Assembly: GCA_021796435.1 (NCBI GenBank)
Contig: JAJYXM010000016.1
Location: 118,625 to 182,624 of the forward strand
Length of the DNA: 64,000 nucleotides
DNA from: a bacterium
GTDB taxonomy: Bacteria; Patescibacteriota; Patescibacteriia; 2-12-FULL-60-25
Direction of reading: 5' to 3'
Below are positions 30,251-51,418 of this stretch, one piece after another; position 1 is the first letter of the stretch; every line of letters starts with the position of its first letter. A model generated the notes under the pieces. That model was not told the origin of the DNA. It did no database searches and saw nothing but the letters and a program-made list of their open reading frames with translations. The translations under genes were made by a program, and so were the position numbers.

Positions 30251-30546
30251 AACACAAACTCCGCCGGCAGAGCCAGCGGAGTTTTGTGATGATTAAAATC
30301 AGTAAATCAAACACCTTGGGCCTTGCCGTGAAGCTTGGTCCAGCGCCATGAGCGGGAAAGAGAGGCGTTTGATGACATATGGCTATCTTAAGATCAGCTT
30401 AGCACGGTTTGTGTTGGCGTCAAGATTTCGCGATCAGCCTTGCTTTTTTGACTCTGTGGAAGTGCTTGTAGTTGGTTTGCGTTCTTATCTTGGGGATAAA
30501 TATACGGATTTAGTTAAAAATGGCTGTTTGACAGATATTTGATAGT

Positions 30547-30561
30547 GTTCTATTTTTGTTC
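30547..30561 (+). promoter_or_regulatory. putative LexA box GTTC-N7-GTTC
   Basis: GTTCTATTTTTGTTC sits upstream of the four-helix-bundle gene and lexA. Confidence 0.5.
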
Positions 30562-30601
30562 GTATAGGGAATGACGAATGCCAAATGACGAATGACGAAT
30601 T

Positions 30602-30964
30602 ATGGAAGGTAATATAATCCAAACCAAAAGTTACGAATTCGCTTTGGCCATAGTCGATGTATACAAAAGGTTGTCGGGCGAACGGAGGGAGTTTGTATTG
30701 TCTAAGCAGTTGCTAAGAAGCGGTACTTCAATCGGTGCCAATATCGAAGAGGCGATTGGCGGGCAGTCGGATAGGGATTTCTTCACGAAGATGACTATAG
30801 CCTACAAAGAAGCGCGTGAGACTTTGTATTGGCTTCGTTTGTTAGGAGATGCAGGATATTTGGAAATGGATGATTCGGCATTATTAGGTAGTAAGTGCGA
30901 TGAGCTGTGCCGAATACTTTCCAAAATCCAATTAACTTTAAAATCTAGAATGAATAGTCCTTAA
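30602..30964 (+). CDS. four-helix-bundle protein (23S rRNA intervening-sequence protein family)
   Basis: SYEFALAIVDVYKRL...QLLRSGTSIGANIEEA is characteristic of this family. Flanked by inverted repeats. Confidence 0.6.
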   Translation: MEGNIIQTKSYEFALAIVDVYKRLSGERREFVLSKQLLRSGTSIGANIEEAIGGQSDRDFFTKMTIAYKEARETLYWLRLLGDAGYLEMDDSALLGSKCDELCRILSKIQLTLKSRMNSP

Positions 30965-31004
30965 TTCGTCATTTGGCATTCGTAATTCGTAATTAATAAA
31001 GTTT

Positions 31005-31628
31005 ATGCCCCCCTTAACACCAAAACAAAAAGAAGTCCTGGACTTCATCGTCAACTTCATAAATGAGCGTGGTTATCCGCCTTCGTTCCGTGAGATCGCC
31101 GATGGATTGGATCTGGCTTCGCCCTCGACCGTGCACGTACACATCCATGCCTTGAAGGAACGTGGTTTCCTTAAGGGCAATGTCGGTGGAGCTCCGGGTG
31201 CGCGCAATCTGGAACCGACGAATAAAGCTGTGCAGTGGGGTAAGAGCGTGCTGTTGCCGCTGAAGGGTCTGATCGCGGCTGGTGCGCCGATCGAGGCAGT
31301 AGAGGAGCGCGAAAGCTTTGCTGTACCGGTAGAGTTGGCGCCGGACTCGGCTAACTCGTATGTGTTGCGAGTAAAAGGTGATTCGATGATCGAGGATGGA
31401 ATCTTCGACGGAGATTATGTCGTAGTCGAACGTTGTCCAAGCCCAAAGAACGGCGACACGGTCGTAGCGCTTTTGGATAATGAGTATGCCACGCTAAAGC
31501 GTTTCTATCGTGAACGTGACCGCATCCGTCTGCAGCCGGCGAATTCGACCATGAAACCGATCTATTGTTACGACCCGTTGATCCAGGGGGTCGTCAGGGC
31601 AGTGATCAGAAAGTTCGAGTTGAGATAA
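31005..31628 (+). CDS. lexA: LexA repressor
   Basis: N-terminal winged HTH; cleavage region with S24 peptidase Ser (GDSM) and Lys. Confidence 0.85.
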   Translation: MPPLTPKQKEVLDFIVNFINERGYPPSFREIADGLDLASPSTVHVHIHALKERGFLKGNVGGAPGARNLEPTNKAVQWGKSVLLPLKGLIAAGAPIEAVEERESFAVPVELAPDSANSYVLRVKGDSMIEDGIFDGDYVVVERCPSPKNGDTVVALLDNEYATLKRFYRERDRIRLQPANSTMKPIYCYDPLIQGVVRAVIRKFELR

Positions 31629-31848
31629 ATTTCGCCTAACATACGACTTAAACGAAGTTTGATTTTTTCAGAGTCGGAACGAGGATTTTTGAGGCAACCC
31701 GCAAAAATCCGAAGTGACCTCGAAAAAATCAAATTTGGGAGAGGCACGAGCCGAGTGCCGAGCCGTTTAAGTCGTGTTATACACCCCGAACGAAGTGAGA
31801 GCGCAGCGTGGTCTGAGCCGAAAGGCGAAGAAGTTTTTCTTTGGGCAA

Positions 31849-32457
31849 TTATAGAATCTTAATTATTCCAATAATTGCATCTGATTTCTTATCTTGATTT
31901 TTAAAAACAAAACCATCCTTCTTTATTTCTTTCTCTCTTCCTTTGTATCTATGTTCAACTCTTTCTAATTGAGATAAATCATAAACGATGGCTATATCAA
32001 CTTTTACAGGTTTGTTCCTGTCAGCTATTGGCCAAAAATAAAATGGCTCGAGAAAATGTTTAAAATATTCATCATTCTTTTTGACTTTGAAATCCAATGC
32101 AAAAAAGTCGATATGCTTGTTATCAAGATTTTCATATCTGTCACCCTTCCGCTTTGGATTATATCTGTCGTATCCTAATTTTTTTATTATTTTGATTAAA
32201 TCATCTATTGTTTTTCCTTTGTGTTCATCTGAACCTAAAACTCTAATAGCGACTTTTTTGCCTAGAAAATGAGATTTTAAACATTTATCAATTTTTTTAC
32301 CTATCTTTTCAAAATCAGGAACATTATCCCAATATATTTTTGGAATTTTGATGTTGTACCAAGGTGTTCCTGCATAATCCATTTTATTTTTGGTGTTTTT
32401 GAAATTTTTAAGTTTATATTCAGGAACACTGACTTGATAGATTGGAATTTTAGCCAT
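31849..32457 (-). CDS. hypothetical protein (AT-rich, Lys-rich)
   Basis: 202-aa ORF in a markedly AT-rich segment. Confidence 0.4.
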   Translation of the reverse strand: MAKIPIYQVSVPEYKLKNFKNTKNKMDYAGTPWYNIKIPKIYWDNVPDFEKIGKKIDKCLKSHFLGKKVAIRVLGSDEHKGKTIDDLIKIIKKLGYDRYNPKRKGDRYENLDNKHIDFFALDFKVKKNDEYFKHFLEPFYFWPIADRNKPVKVDIAIVYDLSQLERVEHRYKGREKEIKKDGFVFKNQDKKSDAIIGIIKIL

Positions 32458-32637
32458 AGTTATCTTAAAGATGGTTTTGTTTTATAAGCTTTTACATCAA
32501 AGTGCCCAAAGAAAAATTGTGTATAACTCGTTTTTGTGCGCAGTGATTGTGGTTTAGGCTGCGATATTGGCATGTTAGACGATGTGTGTTAGCTAGTAAA
32601 TAAGGTGCACGTTCGTAATCCATGTTTATTCTTAGCC

Positions 32638-33462
32638 ATGTTTTTTATGTTGGAGAGATGTCTGCAGAAGACGGCTGACGAAATACGTTTGCGCAATTAT
32701 AGTCGCAAGACCATTAGCGCGTATTTGGCTTGTATAAAGGATTTTTTGTCTAAGAATCCGAATTGCTGTGAACATTGTGATGAGGAAGTAATTCGTCGTT
32801 TTTTGTTGGACAAACATGAAAAGGATTATTCGCCACAAACCGTGAATTTATACTTGAATGCAATCAAATATTATTATCTTGATGTTTTGCGTCTGGGCGT
32901 AAAAATCAATATCAGATTCGCCAAGCGATCAAAGAGGCTGCCTGTCGTGCTGTCTCGTGGTGAGATAGCACGCTTGCTTTCGACCATCAGGAACAACAAA
33001 CATAAGGTTTTGGTGGCCTTAGCTTATGGCGCTGGTATGCGCGTCAGCGAAATAGTCAGGTTGAGGGTCGGCGACGTGTTGTTGGACGAGCTTGTTTTGC
33101 ATATCAAACAAGCCAAGGGGGCCAAAGATAGGATTACAGTAATGCCGGAAAGATTGGCAGATGAGCTGCGTGCTCTGATGGCCGGAAAAGCTCGGGAAGA
33201 TTTTGTTTTTTCCAGCGAACGCGGCGGTCGACTTTCTGAGAGGACGGCGCAGGTTGTGTTCGAACGTGCATTAGTATCAGCCGGGATAGGCAAAACCGCA
33301 ACTTTCCACTCGTTACGTCATAGTTTTGCTACGCATTTACTGGAGAATGGGGTGGATGTGCGTTATGTGCAGGAACTTTTGGGACATCAGAACATACGCA
33401 CGACCCAAATCTACACGCATGTGACTGATCCGGGCATCAGGGGGATAAAAAGTCCGTTTTGA
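32638..33462 (+). CDS. tyrosine site-specific recombinase (XerC/D/integrase family)
   Basis: Catalytic pattern R...HSLRHSFATHLL...R..LLGH....T.IYTHV. Confidence 0.75.
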   Translation: MFFMLERCLQKTADEIRLRNYSRKTISAYLACIKDFLSKNPNCCEHCDEEVIRRFLLDKHEKDYSPQTVNLYLNAIKYYYLDVLRLGVKINIRFAKRSKRLPVVLSRGEIARLLSTIRNNKHKVLVALAYGAGMRVSEIVRLRVGDVLLDELVLHIKQAKGAKDRITVMPERLADELRALMAGKAREDFVFSSERGGRLSERTAQVVFERALVSAGIGKTATFHSLRHSFATHLLENGVDVRYVQELLGHQNIRTTQIYTHVTDPGIRGIKSPF

Positions 33463-33498
33463 ACTTATATTTCAGGGGCTTGACGAGTATTTGCAAGT

Positions 33499-33513
33499 GT
33501 TCTATTTTTGTTC
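33499..33513 (+). promoter_or_regulatory. putative LexA box GTTC-N7-GTTC
   Basis: AGTGTTCTATTTTTGTTCTAGTA is near-identical over 23 nt to the site at 30545. Confidence 0.5.
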
Positions 33514-33606
33514 TAGTAGGCTGATGGATTGTCATCTCGGCCAGCGCGGAGGGATTTTCCAACTAGAAGATTTCTCGACTGTGCTCGAAATGACATTAAG
33601 AGACAT

Positions 33607-33852
33607 ATGTACGAAAAAATCGCGCAGACAATCGACGTATTAGTGGCCTTCCGGAAAGGGCAGGTAGAACCCATGACTTTCAAATGGGATGGTCATTATT
33701 ATCAGGTCAAGAAGGTGAACTTGGTGCACAGCGAGCGGCGGGGCAGGGAAAAGGTAGTGATCTTTTCCGTGTCGGATGAGGCAAATGCGTATCGATTGGC
33801 GTTTTCGACGGAGACGCTGGGCTGGGAGCTGGAGGAGATGGCGACGTTATAA
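33607..33852 (+). CDS. small hypothetical protein
   Basis: ORF beginning just after a roughly 70-bp palindrome. Confidence 0.35.
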   Translation: MYEKIAQTIDVLVAFRKGQVEPMTFKWDGHYYQVKKVNLVHSERRGREKVVIFSVSDEANAYRLAFSTETLGWELEEMATL

Positions 33853-33939
33853 ATAGAATTGTCATCTCGACCGAAGCGGAGAGATCTTCCGGATGTATAG
33901 TCCCTTGAAAAATCTTCTAAACCGTGGCAGCAGTAAGTA

Positions 33940-34230
33940 ATGGGTAGGATTTACTGGGTGTACATACTTACGAATTGCGTGAGCAGCGTCTTTTATATCG
34001 GCGTGACGAATGATTTGGAAAGGAGGCTATTTGAGCATAAAAGTCATGCGGTTCACGGTTTTACAGATAAATATCAGATTAACCGTTTGATTTATTTCGA
34101 AGAGACTACGGATATCATGGCTGCGATTGAGAGAGAAAAGCAGTTGAAGAGGTGGAGCCGGAGTAAGAAAGAACGGTTGATAGCTACGTTGAATCCATTT
34201 TGGAATGATCTGTCGGATGGTTCCCAATAG
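33940..34230 (+). CDS. GIY-YIG nuclease-superfamily protein
   Basis: IYWVYIL...FYIGVTNDLERRLFEHK matches the GIY-YIG motif. Confidence 0.7.
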   Translation: MGRIYWVYILTNCVSSVFYIGVTNDLERRLFEHKSHAVHGFTDKYQINRLIYFEETTDIMAAIEREKQLKRWSRSKKERLIATLNPFWNDLSDGSQ

Positions 34231-34394
34231 GAAGATTTATCGACTGTGCTCGAAATGACATTTTAGAATAAATTGTCATCTCGACCGAAGCGGAGAGATC
34301 TTCCAGACGGAGTGATTCGCCTGTCCGTCCTTCGAGTAGAAGATTTCTCCACTCAGTCGCTAGGCTCCTTCTGTCGAAATGACATTAAGCTTTT

Positions 34395-35780
34395 ATGTCT
34401 TTTTCTCACTCAAAAAATCTCATTGTCCACCTCGACATGAATTCGTATTTCGCGTCGGTGGAGCAGCAGGCTAATCCTACTCTGCGCGGTCGGCCGTTGG
34501 GCGTATGTGCTTATCTTCATAAGAAGGGTTGCGTTATAGCGGCGTCGATCGAGGCAAAGCGTTTAGGCATGAAGGTCGGGATGTCGGTGGAAGAGGCAAA
34601 GATGAAGGTGCCGGGTGCGGTGTTTGTGCAGAATGATCCGCCTAAATATCGTGCGGTGACGTCGCGCGTGTTCGGGATTTTGCATGAACTGACGGACTGC
34701 ATGGAGCACTATTCCATCGATGAAGCGTTCCTCGACATGACGGGTTGGTACCGTGATGCGGCGGAAGTGGCTTGGGTGATGACCCGCGCGCGGCGACGTA
34801 TCCGTGACGAGGTCGGGGATTGGTTGCGCTGTTCCATCGGCATCGCGCCGACGAGATTCTTGGCCAAGACGGCATCTGACATGGAAAAACCGAATGGTTT
34901 GGTGGTGATAGACTACGATAATCTGGATGAGATCCTGGCTAGTTTGGACCTGCAAGATGTGTGCGGTATCGGGCCACGCATCAGTCGACGATTGAAGCGC
35001 CTGGGGATCGAGACGCTGTTGGACCTGAAGCGTTATCCGGTCGGAAACCTGATGCGAGCTTTCGGTAAGAATGGGTTTTACCTGTGGTCTAAGGTAAACG
35101 GCTCCGAAGTGGAGAACGTGACGTCATCAGATGCGGCACCATCGCCTAAATCAGTAGGGCATTCGTATTGCGTCCCTGACAGGGTGAACAAGGAAGGGAA
35201 GGTCTTGGCTACGCTGGTCAAATTGACGGAGCGTGCCGGACGCAGATTGCGTGCCCTGGGTCTCGTGGCTGGGTCGGTGTATGTGAACGTGGGTTTCAGG
35301 AACAGTCTCGTCTCGCCGTTGACCGAAGTGCGTCCGTCGTTCTGGCAGCCGGGGGCGGGTGAAGGAGGCACGTTGTATTCGCTGTTGGATGAACCGGCTT
35401 CGGATTCTTTCACCCTAGTCGGTGCAGCGACGGAGTTATTGCGTGAATTGTGGCATGGGGAAAGGGTGAACTTTCTAGCGGTGACGCTGACAAATCTGGC
35501 GCCGCCTTCACGGCAAGAAAAACTGTCTTCCTGTGCCGCTGTCATCCCGGACTTTATTCGGGATTCAGAAGCTAGATCCCGGGTCTTTGCCCGGGATGAC
35601 GTGGGTACGATTTGTTGGAACGGCGAGGTTGATCGTAAGCGCCTAGCCTCGAAGGCAGCTGACTTGGTGCGCGACCGTTATGGGGACGAGGCGATAGTCT
35701 TGGGTAATATGTTGGGCTTGGGCGATGAGGCGCCGGATAGGATCGGGTTCAGGAAAGTGGAAGGCCTAGAGTTCAGGTGA
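34395..35780 (+). CDS. dinB: DNA polymerase IV (Y-family) with a roughly 100-aa C-terminal extension
   Basis: LDMNSYFASVE...; Y-family palm, fingers and little-finger order. The ORF continues about 100 aa beyond the usual DinB end. Confidence 0.85.
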   Translation: MSFSHSKNLIVHLDMNSYFASVEQQANPTLRGRPLGVCAYLHKKGCVIAASIEAKRLGMKVGMSVEEAKMKVPGAVFVQNDPPKYRAVTSRVFGILHELTDCMEHYSIDEAFLDMTGWYRDAAEVAWVMTRARRRIRDEVGDWLRCSIGIAPTRFLAKTASDMEKPNGLVVIDYDNLDEILASLDLQDVCGIGPRISRRLKRLGIETLLDLKRYPVGNLMRAFGKNGFYLWSKVNGSEVENVTSSDAAPSPKSVGHSYCVPDRVNKEGKVLATLVKLTERAGRRLRALGLVAGSVYVNVGFRNSLVSPLTEVRPSFWQPGAGEGGTLYSLLDEPASDSFTLVGAATELLRELWHGERVNFLAVTLTNLAPPSRQEKLSSCAAVIPDFIRDSEARSRVFARDDVGTICWNGEVDRKRLASKAADLVRDRYGDEAIVLGNMLGLGDEAPDRIGFRKVEGLEFR

Positions 35781-35846
35781 CTGTATCTTGCAAGAACCGG
35801 CTTTCATGCTTAAGCTTGTGGCACACATTCGAGTCAGGAGGCGATT

Positions 35847-36401
35847 ATGCATGCGGAATTGAAGAAGCGCGGGCAGGAACTCATCGCGGCGGCGGAATTC
35901 CTGGAGCAAGTCGAGGCCGTGCTGGCCAAGCATGGGATCGGCCGTCAGGGATCGGAGTGGGTCATGGAGGTCGGTTTTCCGGAGCGAATGGAGAAGACTA
36001 GGACAAGAGCAAGCGGCGGAACGGGGAACACGGCCATTTATTGGGGCATGTCTAATCCGCCGCATAGCGCGGTTACGGCGTATGTCGAGCTCCATTTCGT
36101 AAAAATGGGCCGCGCTAATGATGAGTCGCTCTTCAAGACGCGTGAGGCGCGGCTTGTGTACTTCACGGGCGACTCGCCTTTCTACTCGTTCAGCGTTTAC
36201 GATTTCGACAAGCATTGCGACTCGGATTTCCCGGAATGGGATCCGACGCTAGCGGAATTCCTGCTGGCGCGACACGTCCCGCTCGGCGAACTGCCGAAGA
36301 AGCGTCCTAGCCGCGAGGACGTGTTCGAGATCGTGGAGACCGTGGCCAAGTTCTACGCTGGCCTGAGGTGGCCTGAAGCATGCGCTACAAGCGCACTCTG
36401 A
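35847..36401 (+). CDS. hypothetical protein
   Basis: ORF of 184 aa. Confidence 0.45.
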   Translation: MHAELKKRGQELIAAAEFLEQVEAVLAKHGIGRQGSEWVMEVGFPERMEKTRTRASGGTGNTAIYWGMSNPPHSAVTAYVELHFVKMGRANDESLFKTREARLVYFTGDSPFYSFSVYDFDKHCDSDFPEWDPTLAEFLLARHVPLGELPKKRPSREDVFEIVETVAKFYAGLRWPEACATSAL

Positions 36402-36438
36402 CGTAAAAGCTCCGCTGTTCTGGCGGAGCTTCACGTGT

Positions 36439-37227
36439 TTAGCGGCTGGTGACCTTGGATATGTCTATGAACGGCGTCGCTCCGCTCATGACGGCAGGCA
36501 GCTTGCCGTCCCACTTCTCGATGGCACGCAGTTCCAAGACTTGGGGATTCGAACGCAGCGCTTCTGATTCGACGCGCAGAGCTTCGGCCTTACCGCGCGC
36601 TTCGGCGATGTTCTGGTCGGCTTCGAATTTGATCTGTTCCAGCTTGTTCTTGGCGGCGAGCGCGGCCTGTTCCGCGGTCACTTTGGCCTCGATGGCTTCG
36701 TTGAATGATTTGGAGAAGCTGAAATCCACGATGTTGAAGTCGTCGACTTCGATGCCATGCGGCGAGAGCTTGTTTTTGACATGGTTGCGGATCTCTTCGC
36801 GGACTTCTTCACGTTTGGTGATTAGCTCTTCGGCCGTGTATTTGGCAGTCGAGGCTTTGACCGATTCCTGTAACGCAGGGTCGATGAGTCTCGTCTTGTA
36901 ATCCACGCCTACATCCTGGTAGATGTTGGCGACTTTATCGGGATTGATGTGGAAGTTGAGCGCTACGATGCTGCTGACGCTTTGCAGGTCTTTAGAGGCG
37001 GCCGTTGCATCGACCTGTTCTTTTTGAATTTTGACGTCCATCACTACGACACGATCCGCGATCGGTACGCGCATGAACAGACCTTCGTCGTAAATCTTAT
37101 CAGTGACGGCGTCCCAACGGAGGAGCACGCCTCGTTCACCGGCGCCGATAGTGCCGAACGGCCAGGCTATAAGTAAGACGACGATGACTGCAAATGCCGC
37201 TATGGCTGGCTTGATGGGGAATTTCAT
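36439..37227 (-). CDS. SPFH/band-7 (prohibitin-like) membrane protein
   Basis: N-terminal TM helix followed by an SPFH-like domain. Confidence 0.7.
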   Translation of the reverse strand: MKFPIKPAIAAFAVIVVLLIAWPFGTIGAGERGVLLRWDAVTDKIYDEGLFMRVPIADRVVVMDVKIQKEQVDATAASKDLQSVSSIVALNFHINPDKVANIYQDVGVDYKTRLIDPALQESVKASTAKYTAEELITKREEVREEIRNHVKNKLSPHGIEVDDFNIVDFSFSKSFNEAIEAKVTAEQAALAAKNKLEQIKFEADQNIAEARGKAEALRVESEALRSNPQVLELRAIEKWDGKLPAVMSGATPFIDISKVTSR

Positions 37228-37275
37228 ATGGCTTCAGTAGACTTGATATATGAAAACGTGTCAATATTGCGGCAT

Positions 37276-38160
37276 ATGAAAGCAGCTGTAGTATCACCAT
37301 CCGCGCCGTCGACATTTTCCGAAGAGCGCAGAAGCCAGTATGAGAGAGGGCTCACTAACATGAGCGTTTGGGGATTAGATTACGTAGTCATGCCACATGC
37401 GGCGAATGCTTTGAGCTATGTGTCGGATACGGCGGACAACCGGCTGGACGACTTCATGGCGGCTTATCATGACAAGACCGTCGATGTCGTCATGACCACT
37501 AACGGCGGTTGGAATGCGGGTGATATCCTGGCGGGCATAGATTGGGAAACCGTGAAAAATAATCCCAAGACATTGGTAGGTTTCTCGGACATCACAGCAT
37601 TATTGAATGCCGCATACGCCAAGACGGGTCAGGTCCAGATACAGGGGCCGATGGTGACGTGGGGTTTCAATGAGAACGATCGGCTGACGATAGAATGTTT
37701 CATGAAGGCATTGCGGGATAAGCACTACGATCTACCGTTAGAGAAATTCGGTAAATTTTTGCGCGGTTCGAATCTTGAGGGTATAGGGATCGGCGGTAAT
37801 CTGGTCACGCTTGAGTCATTATTCGGCACACCATACATGCCGGATTTCGAGGGTAAGATATTGTTTTGGGAAGAGACGGAAGAAAAATTGCCAGCCCTGA
37901 TGAGGATCTTGGCACATTACAAGAACGTCGGCGCGTGGGATAAGATCAAAGGGATGATCATCGGACGGTTGGACCAGATCGACTGCCGCTTCGCTGGTCG
38001 GGAGTTTGATCCGCTGACGACGATATTGGAGCATCTTGAGCCTTATGGTTTTCCTATAATGAAGACTGAACTGTTCGGTCATGAGATAGATCAGTATCTT
38101 CCACTACCGGTCGGCGGTAAGATAAAAGCTGATGAAGCAAAGATACAATTCACATTCTGA
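37276..38160 (+). CDS. LD-carboxypeptidase (peptidase S66, LdcA/MccF-like)
   Basis: VGFSDITALL nucleophile-region motif and overall S66 layout. Confidence 0.7.
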   Translation: MKAAVVSPSAPSTFSEERRSQYERGLTNMSVWGLDYVVMPHAANALSYVSDTADNRLDDFMAAYHDKTVDVVMTTNGGWNAGDILAGIDWETVKNNPKTLVGFSDITALLNAAYAKTGQVQIQGPMVTWGFNENDRLTIECFMKALRDKHYDLPLEKFGKFLRGSNLEGIGIGGNLVTLESLFGTPYMPDFEGKILFWEETEEKLPALMRILAHYKNVGAWDKIKGMIIGRLDQIDCRFAGREFDPLTTILEHLEPYGFPIMKTELFGHEIDQYLPLPVGGKIKADEAKIQFTF

Positions 38161-38169
38161 ATCATTGAT

Positions 38170-42349: not shown

Positions 42350-42353
42350 ATTT

Positions 42354-43646: not shown

Positions 43647-43690
43647 TCAAAATCAGACAGCCGGTAATTAAGCCGGCATAAAATAATCTT

Positions 43691-43876
43691 ATGGGCGATT
43701 GGTGCAAGAGCAAGTCACAAGGCGGTAACGCCGTGTATGGCCTCGGATTGATCGGGGCGGCAGTCTACTATATCGGCCATGCAGCGGGTTTTTGGATGGG
43801 AGTATTGGGCCTGCTCAAGGCCTTAGTCTGGCCAGCATTCCTGGTCTACGACGTGTTGATGTTCCTGGCTAAATAA
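43691..43876 (+). CDS. small membrane protein
   Basis: 61 aa, 2 TM helices. Confidence 0.35.
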   Translation: MGDWCKSKSQGGNAVYGLGLIGAAVYYIGHAAGFWMGVLGLLKALVWPAFLVYDVLMFLAK

Positions 43877-43950
43877 GCCAGCGAGAAGACCGCTCGTCTA
43901 TCCGGACGGGCGGTTTTCCTTTATCTGCGCTTTCCGGCTAAGATGGGATT

Positions 43951-44574
43951 ATGTGCTTCTGTGCAACCGGTAGTTTCGCGGCGAGTGGGGTTTTGGTTGT
44001 GGCTGGTGCGGCTACTTTAGCCGTGGCCGAGAGCGAGGAGTTGATGCTCGCCTTACTCCCGATATTCTTTGCCGTGCAGCAGGCCATAGAAGGATGGCAG
44101 TGGCTCGTTCCGCATCCTAGCGCGCAAAGCGCTATCCTCGGTAAGCTGTATTTATTTTTCGCCTTCGTCTTTTGGCCGGTGTACATACCTTGGATGGTTC
44201 ACAGCGTAGAGTCCGATAAGCATAGACGAGGGATCCTGCGTTGGTTTATCGCAATCGGTCTGATGTTGTCACTGGTGCTGTTGGGTTTCTTGATCCTTAA
44301 GCCAGTTGACGTGGTTTTACATCCTTTGGGTATCTTCTATAGCATAGATGTCCCACCGTTGTGGGAACTGTTGGCCTGGTATGTACTTGCGACATGCGGA
44401 AGCATGTTGGTCTCTAGCCGAAAAGGCATTAGGTGGCTGGGTTTCGTCACATTCCTTGCGGTGATAATGGCTTTGGCGATTTCCTTAGGGTCTTATGTTT
44501 CCGTCTGGTGCTTTTTTTCGGCGCTTTTAAGCCTGTTTGTTTATTTCGTGGTAGATAAAAAAGTCGGCACCTGA
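43951..44574 (+). CDS. membrane hypothetical protein
   Basis: 207 aa polytopic. Confidence 0.4.
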   Translation: MCFCATGSFAASGVLVVAGAATLAVAESEELMLALLPIFFAVQQAIEGWQWLVPHPSAQSAILGKLYLFFAFVFWPVYIPWMVHSVESDKHRRGILRWFIAIGLMLSLVLLGFLILKPVDVVLHPLGIFYSIDVPPLWELLAWYVLATCGSMLVSSRKGIRWLGFVTFLAVIMALAISLGSYVSVWCFFSALLSLFVYFVVDKKVGT

Positions 44575-44684
44575 GAGCTGATAAGGGTCGACAAAAATTT
44601 GGGATGTGATAGCTCTGGAACATGGAACCGTCATTCGTCTAAGGGCGAGAGCGGCAGTTTGGATTTGTTTCTGCGAAGGTTATT

Positions 44685-46229
44685 TTGTATGATGGCAACA
44701 ATCCTATGCCGGAAAAAATGCCTGGATACGGAATCTTGCCTGAATCGAATCCTTTCAGATCCGGTTCGGGCGGCGCTGACATCAAGGCAGAGAAGGTGGC
44801 ATCTCAAGAGGTCGAGCCTAACGAAAAGGCCATGGAGAAGGTCGTGGATTTTCTGGAGACTAAAGACCTGAAATACCGCGATTTTTATGCGAATAATCCA
44901 AAGCATCTGCATATGCTGGCAGCTTCGTTCGAGACCGGGATACCTACCCCCATGACGAGCTTTTTTTACGAACCGTTCGGACGGTTCGACGAAGAAGCTA
45001 AGGCGAAGCTACGGACTGGAGAAACGGAACGACATAAGGCAAACGTTTTTTATCCCGAGGGGATCATCAATATCTATCGCGATGAATTATTGGGTACTCA
45101 TGAGACAAAGAAATGGCCGGACGATAGCTATGTTTCTGACGTTTATTACGAGGGAAGTGCCATTGTTTACGCGTTATATGATTTTTTCAAATCTCTGGAT
45201 ACAGAGCAATTGGGAGAGCTGGCCCGTCTTAGTGGTTTGAATGCAGGTGATTTGACTAATATAGAACGTAGTGATTTGGAGACTGCTTTTAGCTCAAGAT
45301 ACGATCCTGACGGTGTGCCGAAAAAGTTGCTGGCTATATTCGGAAATAAGGAGGCTTGGGAGTTCGTCAGACGAAATTGGTTGAGGTCTTTTTTCGCCTC
45401 CTCGATCTACAAGCCACGAAGCGGTGAAAGCCCAAGGATGATTCGTATCGGCGGCAAGGAATATGACCGGGACAAACTCGGGGAAGGTCTTCAGCCGTGG
45501 GGATATATGTTGCATCTCGGTTTTGTGCTTGCTCCGGGGACCGAGGTTGCCGTTTCACCGCATGGTGATTACTACACCCAGGCTACAATTGTCTCACCCC
45601 GGGTAGCTCCAAAAAAAATCCTTGGCATCTATATCAACACGGATGAACGTAATAATATAAACATGCGAGCTGGGGAGGAATGGGTTACTAACGATATTCC
45701 TGCGCCTAAAAAATCATCTTTCAGGGCATCGGTGTTGGAACAATTAGAAAATACGGTCTACAAATCGCCCAAACATCCTCTCGAGTATCTGCTGCTTTAT
45801 TATCCGCGGCCGTTCAACATTTTCCTCGAAAACAACGGGATAGAGTTGGAGAAACTGAAGGGCTACTACGAGGAGTTCACGAAGCTGAAAGAGTCCGCGA
45901 AAAATAAGATGTATAAAGAAGACAAAGAAGTCGCGGATCCGATCCATGAAGAGTTAGAGGAGAAGCTGGGCGTCGAGGTCTATTCCAGGCTGCAGGAGCT
46001 GGCTGAACGGTTCTTGAAGGAGAAAGCCCCTATCAAGGATGGCGAGACTTTCATGACCGGTTTGATCAGGATGGCTGAACGCCATCAACTTCCGATTTAT
46101 AACATCCGAGGAGATTTGTTGTGGCCCAAAAAAATGGATCATGAGGAAGTGGCGAAGCAGGTAGCGGAGAAGGAAGCCGCGAAAGCTGAAGATGTAAAGG
46201 CGAAATCCCGTGTAAGTCACGAGCAATAA
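44685..46229 (+). CDS. hypothetical protein
   Basis: 514-aa ORF with no motif I recognise. Confidence 0.5.
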   Translation: MYDGNNPMPEKMPGYGILPESNPFRSGSGGADIKAEKVASQEVEPNEKAMEKVVDFLETKDLKYRDFYANNPKHLHMLAASFETGIPTPMTSFFYEPFGRFDEEAKAKLRTGETERHKANVFYPEGIINIYRDELLGTHETKKWPDDSYVSDVYYEGSAIVYALYDFFKSLDTEQLGELARLSGLNAGDLTNIERSDLETAFSSRYDPDGVPKKLLAIFGNKEAWEFVRRNWLRSFFASSIYKPRSGESPRMIRIGGKEYDRDKLGEGLQPWGYMLHLGFVLAPGTEVAVSPHGDYYTQATIVSPRVAPKKILGIYINTDERNNINMRAGEEWVTNDIPAPKKSSFRASVLEQLENTVYKSPKHPLEYLLLYYPRPFNIFLENNGIELEKLKGYYEEFTKLKESAKNKMYKEDKEVADPIHEELEEKLGVEVYSRLQELAERFLKEKAPIKDGETFMTGLIRMAERHQLPIYNIRGDLLWPKKMDHEEVAKQVAEKEAAKAEDVKAKSRVSHEQ

Positions 46230-46270
46230 AGGCTTATCGACATTTTCACTGGATGTGATAGCTCTGGAAT

Positions 46271-47764
46271 ATGGAGCTACCACATCTTTTTGAACGCGGA
46301 CGCTACAGCGGGATTCTTTTGAGTTCATTCCTGCTGGGTGTGGCGGTGCATTCAATCTACGCATTCGAGAAGTTCGGTTGGCTGACATCCATAGTCTTGA
46401 CGGTCGGGATCATGGCCCTGTTAGGTCAGGGCAGGGTGCGGTTGGTCTTATTGTTGATTTTCGGATTTCTCTTAGGCATGTGGCGATTCGATATGAGTTT
46501 GCCTAATCGGCAGTCGGGTCTGGTCCACTGGCTCGGCCAAGAAGTGATCGTTTCAGGGACGACGACGGCGTCGAACCAAGGTGACATCATAGTGCTGGTA
46601 CGGAAAGTCGGACAAGTTGCGGTAAATGGGCAAGGGACGAACCTGCATCTGAAGGGTAGGCTGGGAATCAAGATCGGCGATAAGTTGGAATTCAGTTGCC
46701 GTCTGCGTCCTATCGCCACATTCCCTTCGAACATCGACCAGCGCGTGTTCGAGGCACGGAAAGGGGTGTTCGTGCAGTGTTCCGATGTATGGGATTTTCA
46801 CGTCGTGGGTAGCGACGGGCTGTTTTATGTCCAAGGGTTGTTCGGGATTTGGCGGCAAGCGCTGACTGCGCGGATAAATTCGACCATGGGGAGGGATGAA
46901 GCTGCGCTCACGGCCGGCGTCTTGTATGGAGAACAGGCTTTATCCGCGGAGCGTCTGGCTAATTTCCGTAGCGCCGGGCTGATGCACATCATAGCCGTCT
47001 CAGGATCTAACGTAACGATCGTCGTAAGCGTAATCATGGTGGTCATACTTTCCTTAGGTGTAGATCGCAAGCGGGCTTTCTGGTTCGTGACCATCGGGAT
47101 AATCGCCTTCGTGATCTTCGTCGGTTTTTCCGCTTCGGTGCTGCGGGCTGCTTTGATGGGCTGGCTGGTCATACTGGCACGGGCTTGCGGTCGGTTGCCT
47201 TCCGTCTGGAGATTATTGTTGGTGGCTGCATGCGCACTTAACTTTTTCAACCCTTGGCTACTGGGTTTTGACGCGGGTTTTGCGCTGTCGTTCCTGGCTA
47301 CGCTGGGCTTGATGGTCTGGTCTCCGCTCTTGGAGAAGCGCCTGCGTTGGATGCCAAAGATGTTCGGTTTGCGTGAGAGCACGGCGGTCACTTTGGGGGC
47401 GACAGTGATGACCTTGCCCTATCTGGCGTGGGCTTTCGGTCAGATGACGCTGCTCGGCGTAATCACGAATGCCGTGGTCTTACCGTTAGTGCCTTGGCTG
47501 ATGCTCTTTGGCGCGATGACTGCATCGTACGGTAATTCACCCGGATATATGTTCATGGCTGCGCCGGCACAAGGTCTGGCTTGGTTGATCATCAAGATTT
47601 CGGACTATAGCCGCCTCTTGCCTTGGTTGGACATGAAAGTCGAGAACCTGGATTTTTATCTGATGGCTGCGACGTATCTGTGCCTTTTCCAGATGGCGCG
47701 GTTATTGGCGAAAAGCTCAGATCATACTCCAAGCCTTGTGGAAAAAGCTGTTGGAGAAAATTAG
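46271..47764 (+). CDS. comEC: ComEC/Rec2-family competence membrane protein (no beta-lactamase domain)
   Basis: ComEC core with MHIIAVSGSNV motif; N-terminal DUF4131-like region. Confidence 0.7.
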   Translation: MELPHLFERGRYSGILLSSFLLGVAVHSIYAFEKFGWLTSIVLTVGIMALLGQGRVRLVLLLIFGFLLGMWRFDMSLPNRQSGLVHWLGQEVIVSGTTTASNQGDIIVLVRKVGQVAVNGQGTNLHLKGRLGIKIGDKLEFSCRLRPIATFPSNIDQRVFEARKGVFVQCSDVWDFHVVGSDGLFYVQGLFGIWRQALTARINSTMGRDEAALTAGVLYGEQALSAERLANFRSAGLMHIIAVSGSNVTIVVSVIMVVILSLGVDRKRAFWFVTIGIIAFVIFVGFSASVLRAALMGWLVILARACGRLPSVWRLLLVAACALNFFNPWLLGFDAGFALSFLATLGLMVWSPLLEKRLRWMPKMFGLRESTAVTLGATVMTLPYLAWAFGQMTLLGVITNAVVLPLVPWLMLFGAMTASYGNSPGYMFMAAPAQGLAWLIIKISDYSRLLPWLDMKVENLDFYLMAATYLCLFQMARLLAKSSDHTPSLVEKAVGEN

Positions 47765-48229
47765 ATTGTCAGCGCTCTCTGACAAAAGAAAAGGGATGTT
47801 TTTTCGGTGGATGGCGCAGGAAAAAGATCGGTGCGTATTGTTTGTCAGCGCTGACAAACAGAATCTTTGACCCTGTTTACTGTGAGGCTTAAGCTGGAAT
47901 CATGGATCACATGATCCTGCACCTAAGACACACGAAGAGGCTCGAGAAGCTCAGGTCGGACAGGCGCGGGCGGGGAGGTAAAGCGGCCCCGTACTGTGCC
48001 CCGGAAGCGGTACGGCGACTGCACCGGAGAGATGAGGCTTCGCGGGAAATGTATGCCGGACAGATATCCTCCAAGCGATCGGGCAGAACTCTCCAAAGCG
48101 GAGAACATAGACGCCAGGACGCTTGTCGGCAGCAGCAACGAGGTCGGCCCGAAAGGCCGGTCGAACGGACTGCGGGTATGTCCCGAGCCTCTTCGCGATG
48201 TCGTACTTAGCGGGTAAAATCTAATTTCT

Positions 48230-48850
48230 ATGAAGAAAATCAAATTAACGACAGTCCATTTATCGCTTTTGGGTGTAGGTGTGGTCATTTTGGCCGCGAT
48301 AGCGCTCATGCGGAGCACGCCATTAAGCGTGAAGTTGCCTAAATCATATTTCACCGGTCCGGATCAGGCCTCTGTGGCGCAAGGCACTTCAGCCACCTCG
48401 ACGTATGCGGTGCCTGATGGTTTGCCGGCACCGACATCTGCCCATTTCGAGAACGGCGATGCGCTTCAAGCGCTGGGTCCGAATTGGGCGTTCCTGAACC
48501 AGTACGAGATGAAAGATGGCGACTCCGTGACTTTGGACGGTACGCGGCCGGTGCGGGAAACGATGGCGCAACTCATAGGTAATGACAATATCGGTCTGCT
48601 GATCCAGGAGGACAACATCGTCGATAGGCAGAAGCTGGAGAAGGCTTTGACGCAGGATGGGATCAAGAAGACGCAAATCGGGCTGCGCGAAGGTTATGTG
48701 ATACCGATGGGCGGTTTGGCGGGCGGCAGCGCTTTCCTATTGACCGGAACTTCCACGGTCTTGATTCTGCAGGACGCGAATGCCGCGAATTGGCCGGATG
48801 AACCGCATCCTGAAGTCCAAATATACATATCGTCAGTCAACGTGCCCTAA
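48230..48850 (+). CDS. secreted hypothetical protein
   Basis: Signal peptide; 206 aa. Confidence 0.45.
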   Translation: MKKIKLTTVHLSLLGVGVVILAAIALMRSTPLSVKLPKSYFTGPDQASVAQGTSATSTYAVPDGLPAPTSAHFENGDALQALGPNWAFLNQYEMKDGDSVTLDGTRPVRETMAQLIGNDNIGLLIQEDNIVDRQKLEKALTQDGIKKTQIGLREGYVIPMGGLAGGSAFLLTGTSTVLILQDANAANWPDEPHPEVQIYISSVNVP

Positions 48851-48941
48851 CGTTCCTTCTTCCGCTCGGGATGCATAGCGGGCGGAAACCGGGAATCACG
48901 TCCTTTCGACAAGCCACAAGGGCACAACAGGAGTCGGTGTC

Positions 48942-51173
48942 ATGACAAGGAAACTCTTTTTCGTAGTCTTCGGTCTGTCCACGCTCATCAATTGCGGGCC
49001 GCAATACGATCCGGAAAACGGAGCGCCTGAAAGCACACAGGATCCGCTCCAGATCGACCAGCAGACGGGTGTGCCGTACGCCAACACCTACCAGTATCCG
49101 ATCCAGGGCTTCAACGCATCGGACTTCGGCTTCGGTTTCGGCAGCATGAACGACCTGATCTGCATGAGCCGCGACAAGGATGGGCAGTGCTTGGCCTTCG
49201 GCTACCACCTGGCGCACGATTCACTCGTCGGACGTACGCCTTACGGCAAGGAAGTCCTGGCGCCGGCCGACGGCATCGTGCGCGTCACGACGGACCTCAC
49301 CTTCAGGGGCTATGGTTCCACCAGCAGCGGCAACAGCAACTACTACGGTTGCGTGCTCGTGCTCGAGCATGAATTCCCTGACGGCAGTCCGTTCACGACT
49401 TTGCTTGGGCACGTGCAGTGCGAGTCGACCACGAACTATGATCCGGCGGCGCGCATCGGCAATCCGGCGCGTGGGACGATCGTACGGCGCGGACAGTACG
49501 TCGGTCATGTAGGACACTATTGGTACGGCGCCGGCAAGACCACGGATTGGCACCACGTCCATTGGGGTAACCGTAAGGGCGCGTTCACGGCGACGAGCTA
49601 TACGCGTTCCGGCGTAGGCGTCTGGGTGCGCGGCTATGCTGCACGGAGCGAGTTCAGCAAGGATCCGCAGACCGGGAAGCTGGTGCACCCCGAATGGTTC
49701 GACCCGATCGATACGGTCAAGAAGTACGGCGATCCGGCCCTTACGCCGGATGTCGGAGTACGCCATCACCCGCCGGGCTCGATGCTGGAGGATCAGCAAG
49801 GGACGTTCTGGCTGGTGACGAATGAGGCGGAAATCGCCAAGCTGCCGACGGCAGTCATCGCATCCGACCACTATGACACTTCATTGGCGGCACGTGCGTC
49901 GCAGGACGAACTCGATTGCTACGCGCATGCGGCGGACATCAAATCGTTCGGCAGCGTCACTCTTTACCAACGGCCGGGTACGCACACGGTGGTCATGGCG
50001 TATGACGACAAGAAAGAACGCTACGACGTGATCCGCCAGGAAGCGCTCTATTCCTGGGGTTATAACTTCCAGGGACTTACGACGGATGCGTCCAAGATCC
50101 AGAAGTGTGAGAACGCATATGCAGCGCGCGGATTCCGCCAGCTGCGTCCGGGCTCGCTCATCAAGGCTGACGAAGAGAGTGAGGTCTCCATCGTCACGCC
50201 GTGGCAGACGCGACGGCCGATCGGCACGGGTGAGATCTACGAGAAGCTCGGTTATTCTTGGGACCGCATCATGTCCGTGCCATATGACGTCATCGACGCG
50301 GTGGCCGGGGTGCGTGAGTCCAATATCGTGGATTACGACTCCATCTTCGCCTGTGCCTTGCCGGCACCTTGTCCATCAGACGGTATGTGCGGCGGCGGCG
50401 ATGATCCGGAAGACTACGTCGATGATGTCGGAGATGTGTCGGAGCAGGACGCGGGCGCATCGACGGAGGGCGGGACGGAACAGCTTGACTCAGGCGCGCC
50501 AGCCGAGGCCTCTGCGACCACGGAATCATGCAACGGCTTGGACGACGACGGCAACGGCCAGATCGATGAAATCTTCATGTGCCGTCTCGGGGCAGTCGGC
50601 GGCGGCTGCGTGACTTCCTGCGGCAGCGCCGGATATCTGGTGTGCACGGCGCCGGCCTGTAGCTGGGGCGAGTGCCACAGCTATCCCGAGGATTGCAGCA
50701 ATACGATCGACGACGACTGCAACGGTCTGGTCGATTGCGCGGATCCTGCGTGTGCCAAAGACGCAAACTGCCAAACTGAAGCAGATGCCGGCATGCTGGC
50801 GGGACAGATTCGATTCATCTATGACGGGCCAGCGAGTCCGGGGAGCATCAAGCTCATGGCTTGGTGGCAGCCTCCGGAGACTGAGCCTCGGATCTGGGAC
50901 GAGGTGACGGATTGCCTGGATGCTGTGCCGGATGATGGCCGTTTCGACTGTACCTTCTTGGTACCGTCGGGTACGGGCCCCCTTGAATTCCAGGTGAATC
51001 TGCCTGATGGCAGCTACTGGGGTGACGAATCGTGCGACCAGATGGGCGGTTGTGGTTCGACCATCGGCACGACCAAGGTCTATGGCTCGGCAGGTGAGTT
51101 GGAGATCAAGATGGTCCCCAATAACGACCAAGGCCAGCCTTACTATAACGGTCATATCGACTCGGTTCCGTGA
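48942..51173 (+). CDS. large secreted protein with M23-like metallopeptidase region and C-terminal Cys-rich repeats
   Basis: Lipobox-like N-terminus; HxxxD...HxH-like motifs; repeated CNGLDDDGNG/CNGLVDC-type Cys/Asp repeats; GC-rich. Confidence 0.5.
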   Translation: MTRKLFFVVFGLSTLINCGPQYDPENGAPESTQDPLQIDQQTGVPYANTYQYPIQGFNASDFGFGFGSMNDLICMSRDKDGQCLAFGYHLAHDSLVGRTPYGKEVLAPADGIVRVTTDLTFRGYGSTSSGNSNYYGCVLVLEHEFPDGSPFTTLLGHVQCESTTNYDPAARIGNPARGTIVRRGQYVGHVGHYWYGAGKTTDWHHVHWGNRKGAFTATSYTRSGVGVWVRGYAARSEFSKDPQTGKLVHPEWFDPIDTVKKYGDPALTPDVGVRHHPPGSMLEDQQGTFWLVTNEAEIAKLPTAVIASDHYDTSLAARASQDELDCYAHAADIKSFGSVTLYQRPGTHTVVMAYDDKKERYDVIRQEALYSWGYNFQGLTTDASKIQKCENAYAARGFRQLRPGSLIKADEESEVSIVTPWQTRRPIGTGEIYEKLGYSWDRIMSVPYDVIDAVAGVRESNIVDYDSIFACALPAPCPSDGMCGGGDDPEDYVDDVGDVSEQDAGASTEGGTEQLDSGAPAEASATTESCNGLDDDGNGQIDEIFMCRLGAVGGGCVTSCGSAGYLVCTAPACSWGECHSYPEDCSNTIDDDCNGLVDCADPACAKDANCQTEADAGMLAGQIRFIYDGPASPGSIKLMAWWQPPETEPRIWDEVTDCLDAVPDDGRFDCTFLVPSGTGPLEFQVNLPDGSYWGDESCDQMGGCGSTIGTTKVYGSAGELEIKMVPNNDQGQPYYNGHIDSVP

Positions 51174-51254
51174 AAAATCTACCCTTGACGTCTCGGTAAA
51201 ACGAGGCGTCTTACCCTTATCCACAAAAGGGTACTTGCGTGGTAAGGTTATTTA

Positions 51255-51279
51255 GTTCAAAATAGAACAAAATTAGAAC
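51255..51279 (-). promoter_or_regulatory. putative LexA box(es) upstream of recA
   Basis: The reverse complement TGTTCTAATTTTGTTCTATTTTGAAC contains GTTC-N7-GTTC and lies about 140 nt upstream of the recA ATG. Confidence 0.5.
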
Positions 51280-51418
51280 ACAGGTATCTTTTAAATCGCG
51301 AACTGTTAGGGCTTCGCTCCGCTCCTGGTCGCCGTAGGTCAAACTACGGCTCCGGCAGTGCTCGCTCCAGCCCGTCGCATTTCATCGATTTAAAAAATAC
51401 CAAATTAATCAAAATCTT

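Follow-up and report, generated by a model that had tools for sequence, protein, structure and literature searches.

In an uncultured bacterium with a small genome, the GTTC-N7-GTTC direct repeat stands in front of lexA, a dinB operon and recA; does it mark these genes as one LexA-controlled SOS regulon? The window analysed here, by which we mean the whole 64-kb stretch of DNA, carries three copies of the repeat, located on the promoters of lexA, the dinB operon and recA. Judged from the sequence and its comparison with relatives, these copies are very probably operators for the LexA encoded at 31005-31628, defining a minimal SOS regulon composed of IVP-lexA, orf81-GIY-YIG-dinB and recA, the size of which is a lower bound, with the scan covering 64 kb of a 1.52-Mb contig. 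The three sites are as follows:

30544-30566, + strand: LexA box 1, AGTGTTCTATTTTTGTTCGTATA, core GTTC-N7-GTTC at 30547-61, putative autoregulatory operator, 24.3 bits
33496-33518, + strand: LexA box 2, AGTGTTCTATTTTTGTTCTAGTA, core at 33499-513, 32.3 bits
51260-51282, - strand: LexA box 3, TGTGTTCTAATTTTGTTCTATTT on the - strand, core at 51265-79, inverted relative to recA, 32.3 bits

The original prediction had placed the repeats at these cores, which is borne out both by the sequence itself (GTTCTATTTTTGTTC at 30547-61 and at 33499-513 on the + strand, GTTCTAATTTTGTTC at 51265-79 on the - strand) and by a matrix scan of the window. The half-sites are two GTTC(TA) units 11 bp apart, corresponding to one helical turn, and the extended motif reads GTTCTA-N5-GTTCTA. 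Allowing up to three mismatches, the 19-mer GTGTTCTAWTTTTGTTCTA occurs three times in the window versus 0.01 times expected. The weight matrix (23 nt, 31 bits) was trained only on lexA-upstream sites of 62 other, related genomes, and its scan detected the three boxes and no further site of at least 8 bits in the window; the top score over 100 Markov-simulated windows was 19.1 bits. PolX, at which a box had been considered, ComEC and the remaining genes in the window are without a box by the matrix. Other bare GTTC-N7-GTTC matches at 2055, 20351, 46768 and 63898 (n = 4) all scored below 8 bits and were rejected as chance occurrences. Sites 1 and 2, which had been described as identical over 23 nt, agree at 20 of 23 positions and share an 18-nt run (AGTGTTCTATTTTTGTTC), with differing 3' ends (GTTCGTA at site 1, GTTCTAG at site 2). 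Likewise, two overlapping boxes had been proposed at recA, where we find a single one, the next unit being GAAC at an offset of 10 nt with no second matrix match. The 24.3 bits of box 1 fall at the low end of the scores in the training set, because an IVP insertion has replaced the last two conserved bases of this box.

The genes of the three units are:

30602-30964, + strand: 23S_rRNA_IVP (TIGR02436) four-helix-bundle gene, within a cassette (30569-30988) between box 1 and lexA
31005-31628, + strand: lexA, 207 aa, winged HTH (PF01726) and S24 peptidase (PF00717), TIGR00498 168 bits versus a cutoff of 111
33607-33852, + strand: orf81, 81 aa, all-beta, the middle gene of the lexA-dinB operon
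33940-34230, + strand: small GIY-YIG nuclease gene, with direct repeats of about 45-50 nt on both sides
34395-35780, + strand: dinB-like Y-family DNA polymerase, 461 aa, catalytic D (DMNSYF) and DE (SIDEAF) present
51419-52510, + strand: recA, 363 aa, PF00154, 451 bits

The AAG cleavage site, the GDSM serine and the KR lysine of the encoded LexA align with those of E. coli LexA in an alignment that also included Thermotoga LexA. Among the matches listed (at least 120), relatives show 78-100% identity, and all source names given there are Patescibacteria, Uhrbacteria or unclassified bacterium. The IVP cassette is flanked by 35-nt inverted repeats of AATGACG-type heptamers; it is missing in the related locus L001, and a similar insertion is found in L004, L027, L029, L036 and L042. 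The repeats around the GIY-YIG gene (33843-93 with 34257-307, and 33556-97 with 34221-62) enclose a gene that occupies this position in only three of the 80 related loci and is probably a selfish insertion inside the operon.

Two promoters were predicted at the first two boxes:

30528-30556, + strand: sigma-70-type promoter of the IVP-lexA transcript, TTGACA, 17 nt, TATTTT, 10/12 match, with the -10 hexamer within LexA box 1
33480-33508, + strand: promoter of orf81-GIY-YIG-dinB, TTGACG, 17 nt, TATTTT

At these predicted promoters, the boxes of lexA and dinB overlap the -10 hexamer and the transcription start, whereas the box of recA, with a putative -35 hexamer TTGCGT, abuts the -10 in inverted orientation. 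The -35 hexamer of the lexA promoter is kept in relatives, and in many of them the lexA ATG follows directly 3' of the box. The orf81-GIY-YIG-dinB promoter is a copy of the one at lexA that has diverged to 80% identity over the 41 nt around the two sites (30528-68 at lexA), and the duplication reaches over the -35 hexamer and further upstream. We propose that a LexA dimer sitting on the operator would exclude RNA polymerase. Upon DNA damage, RecA filaments would stimulate self-cleavage of LexA at the Ala-Gly bond by the Ser/Lys dyad, and all three units would be derepressed.

Phylogenetic footprinting together with the promoter position of the boxes strongly supports an SOS regulon of lexA, dinB and recA at the sequence level. 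GTTC-N7-GTTC stands upstream of lexA in 78 of the 80 related loci, in 61 of them within 100 nt of the start; the two exceptions are L062, where the locus is cut at the contig end, and L072, which carries the one-base variant GTTC..GTAC. An inverted box is present at 15 out of 15 recA promoters, and a lack of the motif at SOS promoters of relatives, which would have spoken against the original prediction, is not observed. Sites of at least 20 bits that do not belong to lexA number 13 in 1.2 Mb of related DNA, and every one of them lies immediately upstream of recA (6) or dinB (7); eight additional recA loci all have the box. In seven relatives dinB has its own box 0-273 nt upstream, like box 2 here, and where dinB in the related loci has none, lexA and orf81 precede it in the same orientation. 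Overall, dinB lies downstream of lexA in 50 of 80 loci, and an orf81 homologue directly 3' of lexA in 60 of 80. Furthermore, the box variant tracks the LexA variant: LexA proteins of 62-65% identity with the helix TVHQH go together with GTTCGG/GTTCGT boxes, and the TVH(V/A/T)H clade with GTTCTA boxes, a co-variation that could reflect shared ancestry alone. This analysis provides a clean, comparatively validated SOS regulon (lexA, dinB operon and recA) for an uncultured bacterium with a small genome.

Between lexA and the dinB operon, the window contains foreign DNA:

31622-33555, no strand assigned: low-GC insertion of 1.9 kb (GC 0.41 versus about 0.54) that splits the ancestral lexA-orf81-dinB operon
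31849-32457, - strand: orf202, within the insertion
32605-33462, + strand: Xer/integron-integrase-like tyrosine recombinase, 285 aa, within the insertion

The insertion contains orf202, the recombinase and the second copy of promoter and box. L001, which has 83 nt at this place, shares synteny with the window over lexA and its flanks, at about 77-83% identity. Neither the recombinase nor orf202 has a homologue among the 80 related loci. The ancestral layout was probably a single box-lexA-orf81-dinB operon, which the 1.9-kb segment with the tyrosine recombinase split in this genome, with the downstream half staying under putative SOS control via the second promoter and operator copy. Box 2 had been suggested to control the recombinase/cassette region; it lies 3' of the recombinase on the same strand, starting 34 nt after the stop codon, is oriented away from that gene and stands at the head of orf81-GIY-YIG-dinB. 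No matrix match of at least 8 bits was detected upstream of 32605. SOS-controlled integron integrase promoters resemble this locus in that an integron-integrase-like tyrosine recombinase lies close to a LexA box, but here the box is 3' of the recombinase and drives other genes. The recombinase was not recognised as an integron integrase with the IntI-specific extra domain (TIGR02249 222.8 bits versus a cutoff of 265, with a match in two stretches); a XerA-type model scores nearly equal. The hairpin-containing repeats of about 45 nt around the GIY-YIG gene are also found in L001, which has no recombinase nearby. The locus indicates that selection kept the translesion polymerase under LexA control through the duplication of promoter and operator, although foreign DNA had interrupted the operon, which makes the split operon a useful natural experiment in regulon maintenance.

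That the three sites are chance matches in AT-rich intergenic DNA is hardly credible: the bare repeat does occur at four other places in the window and a 17-mer version turns up frequently in metagenomic DNA of unrelated origin, but the extended motif and the matrix scores lie far beyond expectation and simulation, and all three sites stand at canonical SOS genes and are conserved in at least 80 genomes. Very unlikely, too, is a reading of sites 1 and 2 as attL/attR-like repeats of a 2.95-kb element (IVP-lexA-orf202-recombinase) that was integrated by the adjacent tyrosine recombinase, with their identity stemming from recombination instead of regulation. An 18-nt identical core with diverged flanks around a segment with a recombinase gene at its right end, and the low GC between lexA and box 2, would suit such an element. 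However, the 18 nt are the consensus of the clade and also precede lexA in the recombinase-free genomes L001-L004, the synteny marks lexA as resident and not imported, and a duplication extending beyond the -35 hexamer is what a promoter copy is expected to look like. Moreover, the motif is also found at recA, 18 kb away, with no recombinase gene identified beside that site, and other genomes independently place a box directly before dinB.

Somewhat more weight, still at a low probability, can be given to another regulator or a special promoter element common to lexA, recA and dinB, with LexA acting elsewhere or not at all. The -10 hexamer TATTTT lies inside the box at lexA and dinB, so part of the box conservation could be promoter conservation, and a second conserved element, TTATCCACA, indicates that these promoters receive other inputs. 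Against this, a motif inverted at every recA promoter cannot be a directional core promoter, and its retention there fits an operator; the near-universal place before lexA is a signature of autoregulation, the GTTC half-site with N7 spacing matches an experimentally validated LexA motif, and the box variant follows the variant of the LexA recognition helix. Operators for the resident LexA are the reading that we retain.

In Alphaproteobacteria, GTTC-N7-GTTC has been validated as a LexA motif, and the alphaproteobacterial-type geometry noted in the original prediction holds. The box shares with that of Alphaproteobacteria and of Acidobacterium capsulatum the tetranucleotide, the 7-nt spacer, the direct repeat and the control of lexA and recA, but differs from the alphaproteobacterial one in the unrelated organism, the half-site extended to GTTCTA and the T-rich spacer. 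The recognition helix SPSTVHVHI is probably nearer to that of Firmicutes LexA (SSSTVHGHL) than to the alphaproteobacterial one (SKSGIHRLI), and a Firmicutes-like helix would suggest that the geometry arose by convergence, as opposed to a lexA that is shared or was transferred. The Gram-positive Cheo box GAAC-N4-GTTC likewise has the GTTC half-site and overlaps promoters of lexA, recA and dinB-type genes, and the LexA that reads it presumably has a recognition helix similar to the one here. Yet the half-sites of the Cheo box are inverted and separated by 4 nt, whereas those here are in tandem with an 11-bp period, so that one DNA-binding domain of the LexA dimer must be rotated relative to the other. 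The direct repeat combined with a probably Gram-positive-like helix adds a case to the question of how tandem half-sites are read by a symmetric LexA dimer.

Among known systems, Balneolaeota have a LexA direct repeat, TTACACATATTTTWTACATA, which also evolved independently and controls lexA, recA and translesion polymerases, with a different half-site sequence. The genomic context is not an unexplored one: the host is a Patescibacterium (Uhrbacteria-like), and the SOS network of this superphylum was described in 2017 (Sanchez-Osuna, Barbe and Erill 2017, Environ Microbiol 19:3465, PMID 28618189). From that paper, LexA of a Parcubacteria-group and a Microgenomates bacterium is listed as experimentally validated, and a later paper from the same group cites PMID 28618189 among cases of LexA evolving direct-repeat recognition. 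That network and the one described here belong to the same superphylum and share a small regulon centred on lexA, recA and translesion synthesis. The regulon is therefore real but largely expected, as another case of the known Patescibacteria SOS response.

The second conserved element is a DnaA-box-like 9-mer on the lexA and recA promoters:

30491-30499, - strand: DnaA-box-like 9-mer of the lexA promoter, TTATCCCCA on the - strand (TGGGGATAA on the + strand), one mismatch to TTATCCACA
51217-51225, + strand: perfect DnaA-box consensus TTATCCACA of the recA promoter, 8 nt upstream of the putative -35 TTGCGT

The copy at recA is the only perfect one in 64 kb, and the one at lexA starts 56 nt upstream of LexA box 1. 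With at most one mismatch, the 9-mer is present in 63 of 78 related lexA promoters versus 4.1% of random windows, and 13 out of 15 recA promoters have it 35-45 nt before the box. Of 58 perfect copies, 38 lie within 110 nt upstream of lexA boxes versus 0.41 expected. The logo of 62 distinct sites, TT(A/t/g)TCC(A/c)CA with flat flanks, depicts an asymmetric 9-mer matching the DnaA-box consensus. The distance of the 9-mer upstream of the -35 hexamer is 7-8 nt at recA as well as in the divergent lexA clade; in the main lexA clade the 9-mer lies further away, displaced in steps of about 11 nt. No report of a conserved DnaA-box-like sequence on LexA-box promoters was found in the literature searched. 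In the Caulobacter recA promoter, the LexA box is closely preceded by a DriD site, which is analogous to TTATCCACA here; DriD is a WYL-domain activator recognising a different motif, whereas the element here matches the DnaA-box consensus.

A tentative reading, which we consider possible but rather doubtful, is that in this Uhrbacteria-like lineage two inputs act on the lexA and recA promoters, though not on the secondary dinB promoters, namely the LexA operator at the -10/transcription start and one DnaA box (TTATCCACA) placed before the -35 hexamer, and, separately, that orf81, which is without detectable relatives outside the lineage, is a lineage-specific SOS protein working with the Y-family polymerase. 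Its homologues fall into 91 clusters, every one of them hypothetical; 15 of the 91 carry a source name, in each case Patescibacteria or Uhrbacteria. The predicted model (pLDDT 93.9) gave no match against the PDB. If DnaA binds, the level at which the SOS master genes are expressed would depend on replication-initiation status in addition to DNA damage, and this in organisms that possess very few regulators; a functional element would thus link replication control to the damage response.

The recA leader contains one further feature between box and start codon:

51283-51401, + strand: GC-rich imperfect palindrome of 119 nt, -52.2 kcal/mol, z = -7.7

It has no Rfam match and no second copy in the window; it is missing from most relatives, and L014 has a comparable insert.

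We located three GTTC-N7-GTTC sites in the window, at lexA (box 1), ahead of orf81, the GIY-YIG gene and dinB (box 2) and at recA (box 3), where the original prediction had placed them. Gene identities in their vicinity were checked against Pfam and NCBIfam, which backed the earlier calls for the four-helix protein, lexA, the recombinase, the GIY-YIG protein, dinB and recA.

Probable LexA boxes, genes and repeats of the lexA, dinB and recA regions
30547-61 (+), box 1, reading GTTCTATTTTTGTTC
30602-30964, 23S_rRNA_IVP four-helix protein (IVP; Pfam/NCBIfam)
31005-31628, LexA (Pfam/NCBIfam)
32605-33462, tyrosine recombinase (Pfam/NCBIfam)
33499-513 (+), box 2, reading GTTCTATTTTTGTTC
33528-33600, 33843-33893, 34221-34307 and 34337-34389, hairpin repeats
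33607-33852, orf81, 81 aa, conserved between lexA and dinB
33940-34230, GIY-YIG protein (Pfam/NCBIfam)
34395-35780, Y-family polymerase (Pfam/NCBIfam)
51265-79 (-), box 3, reading GTTCTAATTTTGTTC
51419-52510, RecA (Pfam/NCBIfam)

The bare GTTC-N7-GTTC pattern occurs seven times in the window against 2.7 expected, and the extended 19-mer, allowing up to three mismatches, occurs only at the three reported places against 0.01 expected. Scanning the window with a 23-nt, 31-bit weight matrix, trained on 62 main-clade lexA-upstream sites with the window itself left out (consensus TGTGTTCTATTTTTGTTCTATAT), recovered exactly the lexA, dinB-operon and recA sites (24.3, 32.3 and 32.3 bits), with no other position reaching 8 bits, and the top score across 100 simulated windows was 19.1, so that these sites are real and non-random and are not accounted for by the chance frequency of the motif in intergenic DNA. 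Upstream of polX, which had been proposed as a further place to look, there is no matrix site, and PolX (10892-12646), ComEC and the other annotated genes of the window are likewise without one. Boxes 1 and 2, described as identical over 23 of 23 nt, have 18 nt in a row in common and match at 20 of 23 positions, and the recA leader carries a single box rather than two overlapping ones; the supposed second box was rejected for want of matrix support, the next unit being GAAC at a 10-nt offset with no score.

Across 80 genomic loci around lexA homologues (LexA 62-97% identical), GTTC-N7-GTTC stands upstream of lexA on the coding strand in 78 (in 61 of them no more than 100 nt from the start), and the two loci lacking the standard box are one cut at a contig end (L062) and one with a one-base variant (L072). 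Thirteen further sites of at least 20 bits were found in 1.2 Mb of related loci, all immediately upstream of recA (six) or dinB (seven), the sole weaker matches being at 17.3 bits within a leuS-like coding sequence. Eight extra recA loci, fetched via RecA homologues, all carry the box, bringing recA promoters to 15 out of 15, and in every case it is inverted relative to recA as in the window; the motif is therefore not missing from the SOS promoters of relatives. Box and protein also vary together: GTTCGG/GTTCGT boxes accompany the recognition helix TVHQH of the divergent LexA clade (62-65% identity), and GTTCTA boxes the helix TVH(V/A/T)H of the main clade. In the divergent-clade loci (L063-L080), the operator region about 20-60 nt upstream of lexA holds four half-sites, GTTCGG-N5-GTTCGG and, about 12 nt on, an inverted GAAC-N7-GAAC, the two pairs flanking a TATAAT -10.

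A metagenome-wide scan for GTTCTANTTTNGTTCTA, from which 80 loci of unrelated organisms were kept (GC 0.20-0.75), is uninformative on regulon membership, because 15 specified bases are unselective at such a database size. LexA/UmuD-like, DinB-like and RecA genes lay near the site in a single locus, L117, and a distant DinB-like match was seen in three others. On L117, a low-GC metagenomic contig (0.29), the same 17-mer directly precedes a umuD-like and Y-family polymerase gene pair (6690-7718), with a recA of 62% identity close by, and is probably a LexA box of equal geometry in another lineage.

Boxes 1 and 2 overlap sigma-70-type promoters, TTGACA-17-TATTTT (30528-56) and TTGACG-17-TATTTT (33480-508), respectively, with the -10 hexamer inside the box at both lexA and the dinB operon, and the inverted recA box abuts the likely -10. 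The lexA ATG directly follows the box in many relatives (GTTCTATATGCC), so the leader there would be very short or absent. The window LexA aligns with E. coli LexA in its DNA-binding domain, AAG cleavage site, GDSM serine and KR lysine, and scores above the TIGR00498 cutoff. Judged by conservation, promoter overlap and this intact LexA, the three sites are very probably LexA operators, and the SOS boxes originally proposed for lexA, dinB and recA hold up to the same degree. On the simplest mechanism, LexA would occlude the promoter in the classical manner and would be removed from it upon induction by RecA-stimulated self-cleavage. The tandem half-sites, 11 bp apart, would lie on one helix face, so that a symmetric dimer would have to rotate one N-terminal domain, as is likewise assumed for alphaproteobacterial LexA.

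GTTC-N7-GTTC is the validated LexA motif of Alphaproteobacteria, and this attribution in the original prediction agrees with the literature. The window LexA finds a 100% match on a 1.52-Mb contig. Among its best 120 relatives (78-97% identical), those with a name are assigned to the Patescibacteria group or Candidatus Uhrbacteria. Its recognition helix is, as we presume, closer to that of Firmicutes LexA than to that of alphaproteobacterial LexA, a likeness that, if it holds, would favour convergence on the same geometry. The direct-repeat box had been called notable in so unrelated a genome; the geometry is real, but the phenomenon has already been published for Patescibacteria. According to a 2021 NAR paper (Table S2), PMID 28618189 experimentally validated two LexA proteins of this group, from a Collierbacteria bacterium and a Parcubacteria-group bacterium; a 2020 paper cites that study among independent evolutions of direct-repeat LexA recognition. 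Whether or not its motif equals that of PMID 28618189, the window is a further instance of this phenomenon.

The usual layout in relatives is box-lexA-orf81-(GIY-YIG)-dinB on one strand, with an orf81 homologue after lexA in 60 of the 80 loci and dinB in 50, the latter generally without a box of its own. L001, a locus whose LexA is 97% identical, shares synteny with the window at about 77% nucleotide identity, and comparison of the two shows a pair of insertions in the window. One (30562-31003) is the IVP gene between 35-nt inverted repeats; the other (31622-33555; 1.9 kb, 41% GC vs about 54% for the window) holds orf202, for which no family match was found, along with the recombinase and a second, diverged lexA promoter and box. 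As the operon was split and the lexA promoter and box were copied, box 2 would thus restore LexA control of orf81, the GIY-YIG gene and dinB. In seven relatives dinB has a box of its own a short way upstream (0-273 nt), and at least L009 among them has an unrelated gene separating orf81 from dinB.

Box 2 had been suggested to control the recombinase and a cassette region, but it does not control the recombinase, whose stop codon it follows at 34 nt. Within 10 kb of lexA, none of the 80 related loci carries a homologue of the recombinase or of orf202. Read as an integron integrase, the 285-aa Xer/integron-integrase-like recombinase falls short of the NCBIfam cutoff (222.8 vs 265 bits) and scores about equally on an XerA-type model; with the results of the matrix scan, this led us to reject an integron made up of recombinase and box. 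Boxes 1 and 2 might instead be att sites of the recombinase, a reading rejected by the synteny with L001 and the clade-wide box consensus. A link to the recombinase is therefore not supported, and restored control of the dinB operon is the reading we retain for box 2.

The position of orf81 in this operon suggests that it is a polymerase partner or has another SOS function. Its 91 homologous clusters are called hypothetical wherever named and, in the 15 with a name, belong to Patescibacteria or Uhrbacteria throughout. No significant family match was found for it; its confident AlphaFold model (pLDDT 93.9) is a seven-strand beta meander, for which a structure search returned no informative neighbour. 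Intergenic repeats with hairpins, about 35-50 nt long, e.g., ATTGTCATCTCGACCGAAGCGGAGAGATCTTCC and AGAAGATTTCTCGACTGTGCTCGAAATGACATT, flank orf81 and the GIY-YIG gene and stand at equivalent positions in L001.

The promoter alignment revealed a DnaA-box consensus, TTATCCACA, adjoining the LexA box. The related DNA (1.2 Mb) holds 58 perfect copies, 38 of which precede the lexA box by no more than 110 nt (0.41 expected), and with up to one mismatch the element is found within 120 nt in 63 of 78 lexA promoters vs 4.1% of random windows. It precedes the box by 35-45 nt in 13 of 15 recA promoters and is present in none of the seven secondary dinB promoters. The logo, TT(A/t/g)TCC(A/c)CA, is flat on either side and so points to an asymmetric 9-bp site. 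The 9-mer has the forward orientation at recA and in the divergent lexA clade, where it stands 7-8 nt ahead of the -35; main-clade lexA promoters have it in reverse, and there its distances from the box cluster at 24, 35, 46, 57 and 68 nt, 11-nt steps that may in part reflect variable numbers of tandem GTTC units. The window has its sole perfect copy at 51217-25, upstream of recA, and a one-mismatch copy at 30491-99, upstream of lexA, without general enrichment of the motif. We can only hypothesize that DnaA would bind this conserved 9-mer. The literature searched gave no link between DnaA boxes and lexA or recA promoters, although a DriD site beside the recA LexA box of Caulobacter offers a conceptual precedent; this co-element and orf81 could be the parts that are new. 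Separately, L075 (2300-2510) has two perfect copies 175 nt apart, each preceded by AAGGTCCGACCTAC, in a long gene-free stretch with other short repeats, possibly an origin-like region or one of iterons.

The window IVP cassette separates lexA from its LexA box, whose last two conserved bases it replaces, and is therefore predicted to be under SOS control. Such IVP or bAvd-like four-helix-bundle genes between AATGACG-type heptamer inverted repeats occur in the window (30569-30988) and in L004, L027, L029, L036 and L042, with similar cassettes upstream of recA in L201, L204, L206 and L207; they behave like small mobile cassettes of lexA/recA promoter intergenic DNA. The recA leader of the window carries, between LexA box and start codon, an inserted 119-nt GC-rich imperfect palindrome (51283-51401; -52 kcal/mol, z = -7.7), single-copy in the window. 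Searched against Rfam, 30000-52600 gave no match, neither to a structured recA leader nor to any other RNA. Among relatives, L014 carries a similar insert and most lack one; the palindrome may have arisen as a miniature inverted-repeat insertion or may serve as a leader structure. Elsewhere in the window, a gene for a 402-aa reverse transcriptase (RVT_1; 17671-18879, minus strand) adjoins the most GC-rich stretch (18-20 kb, GC 0.62).
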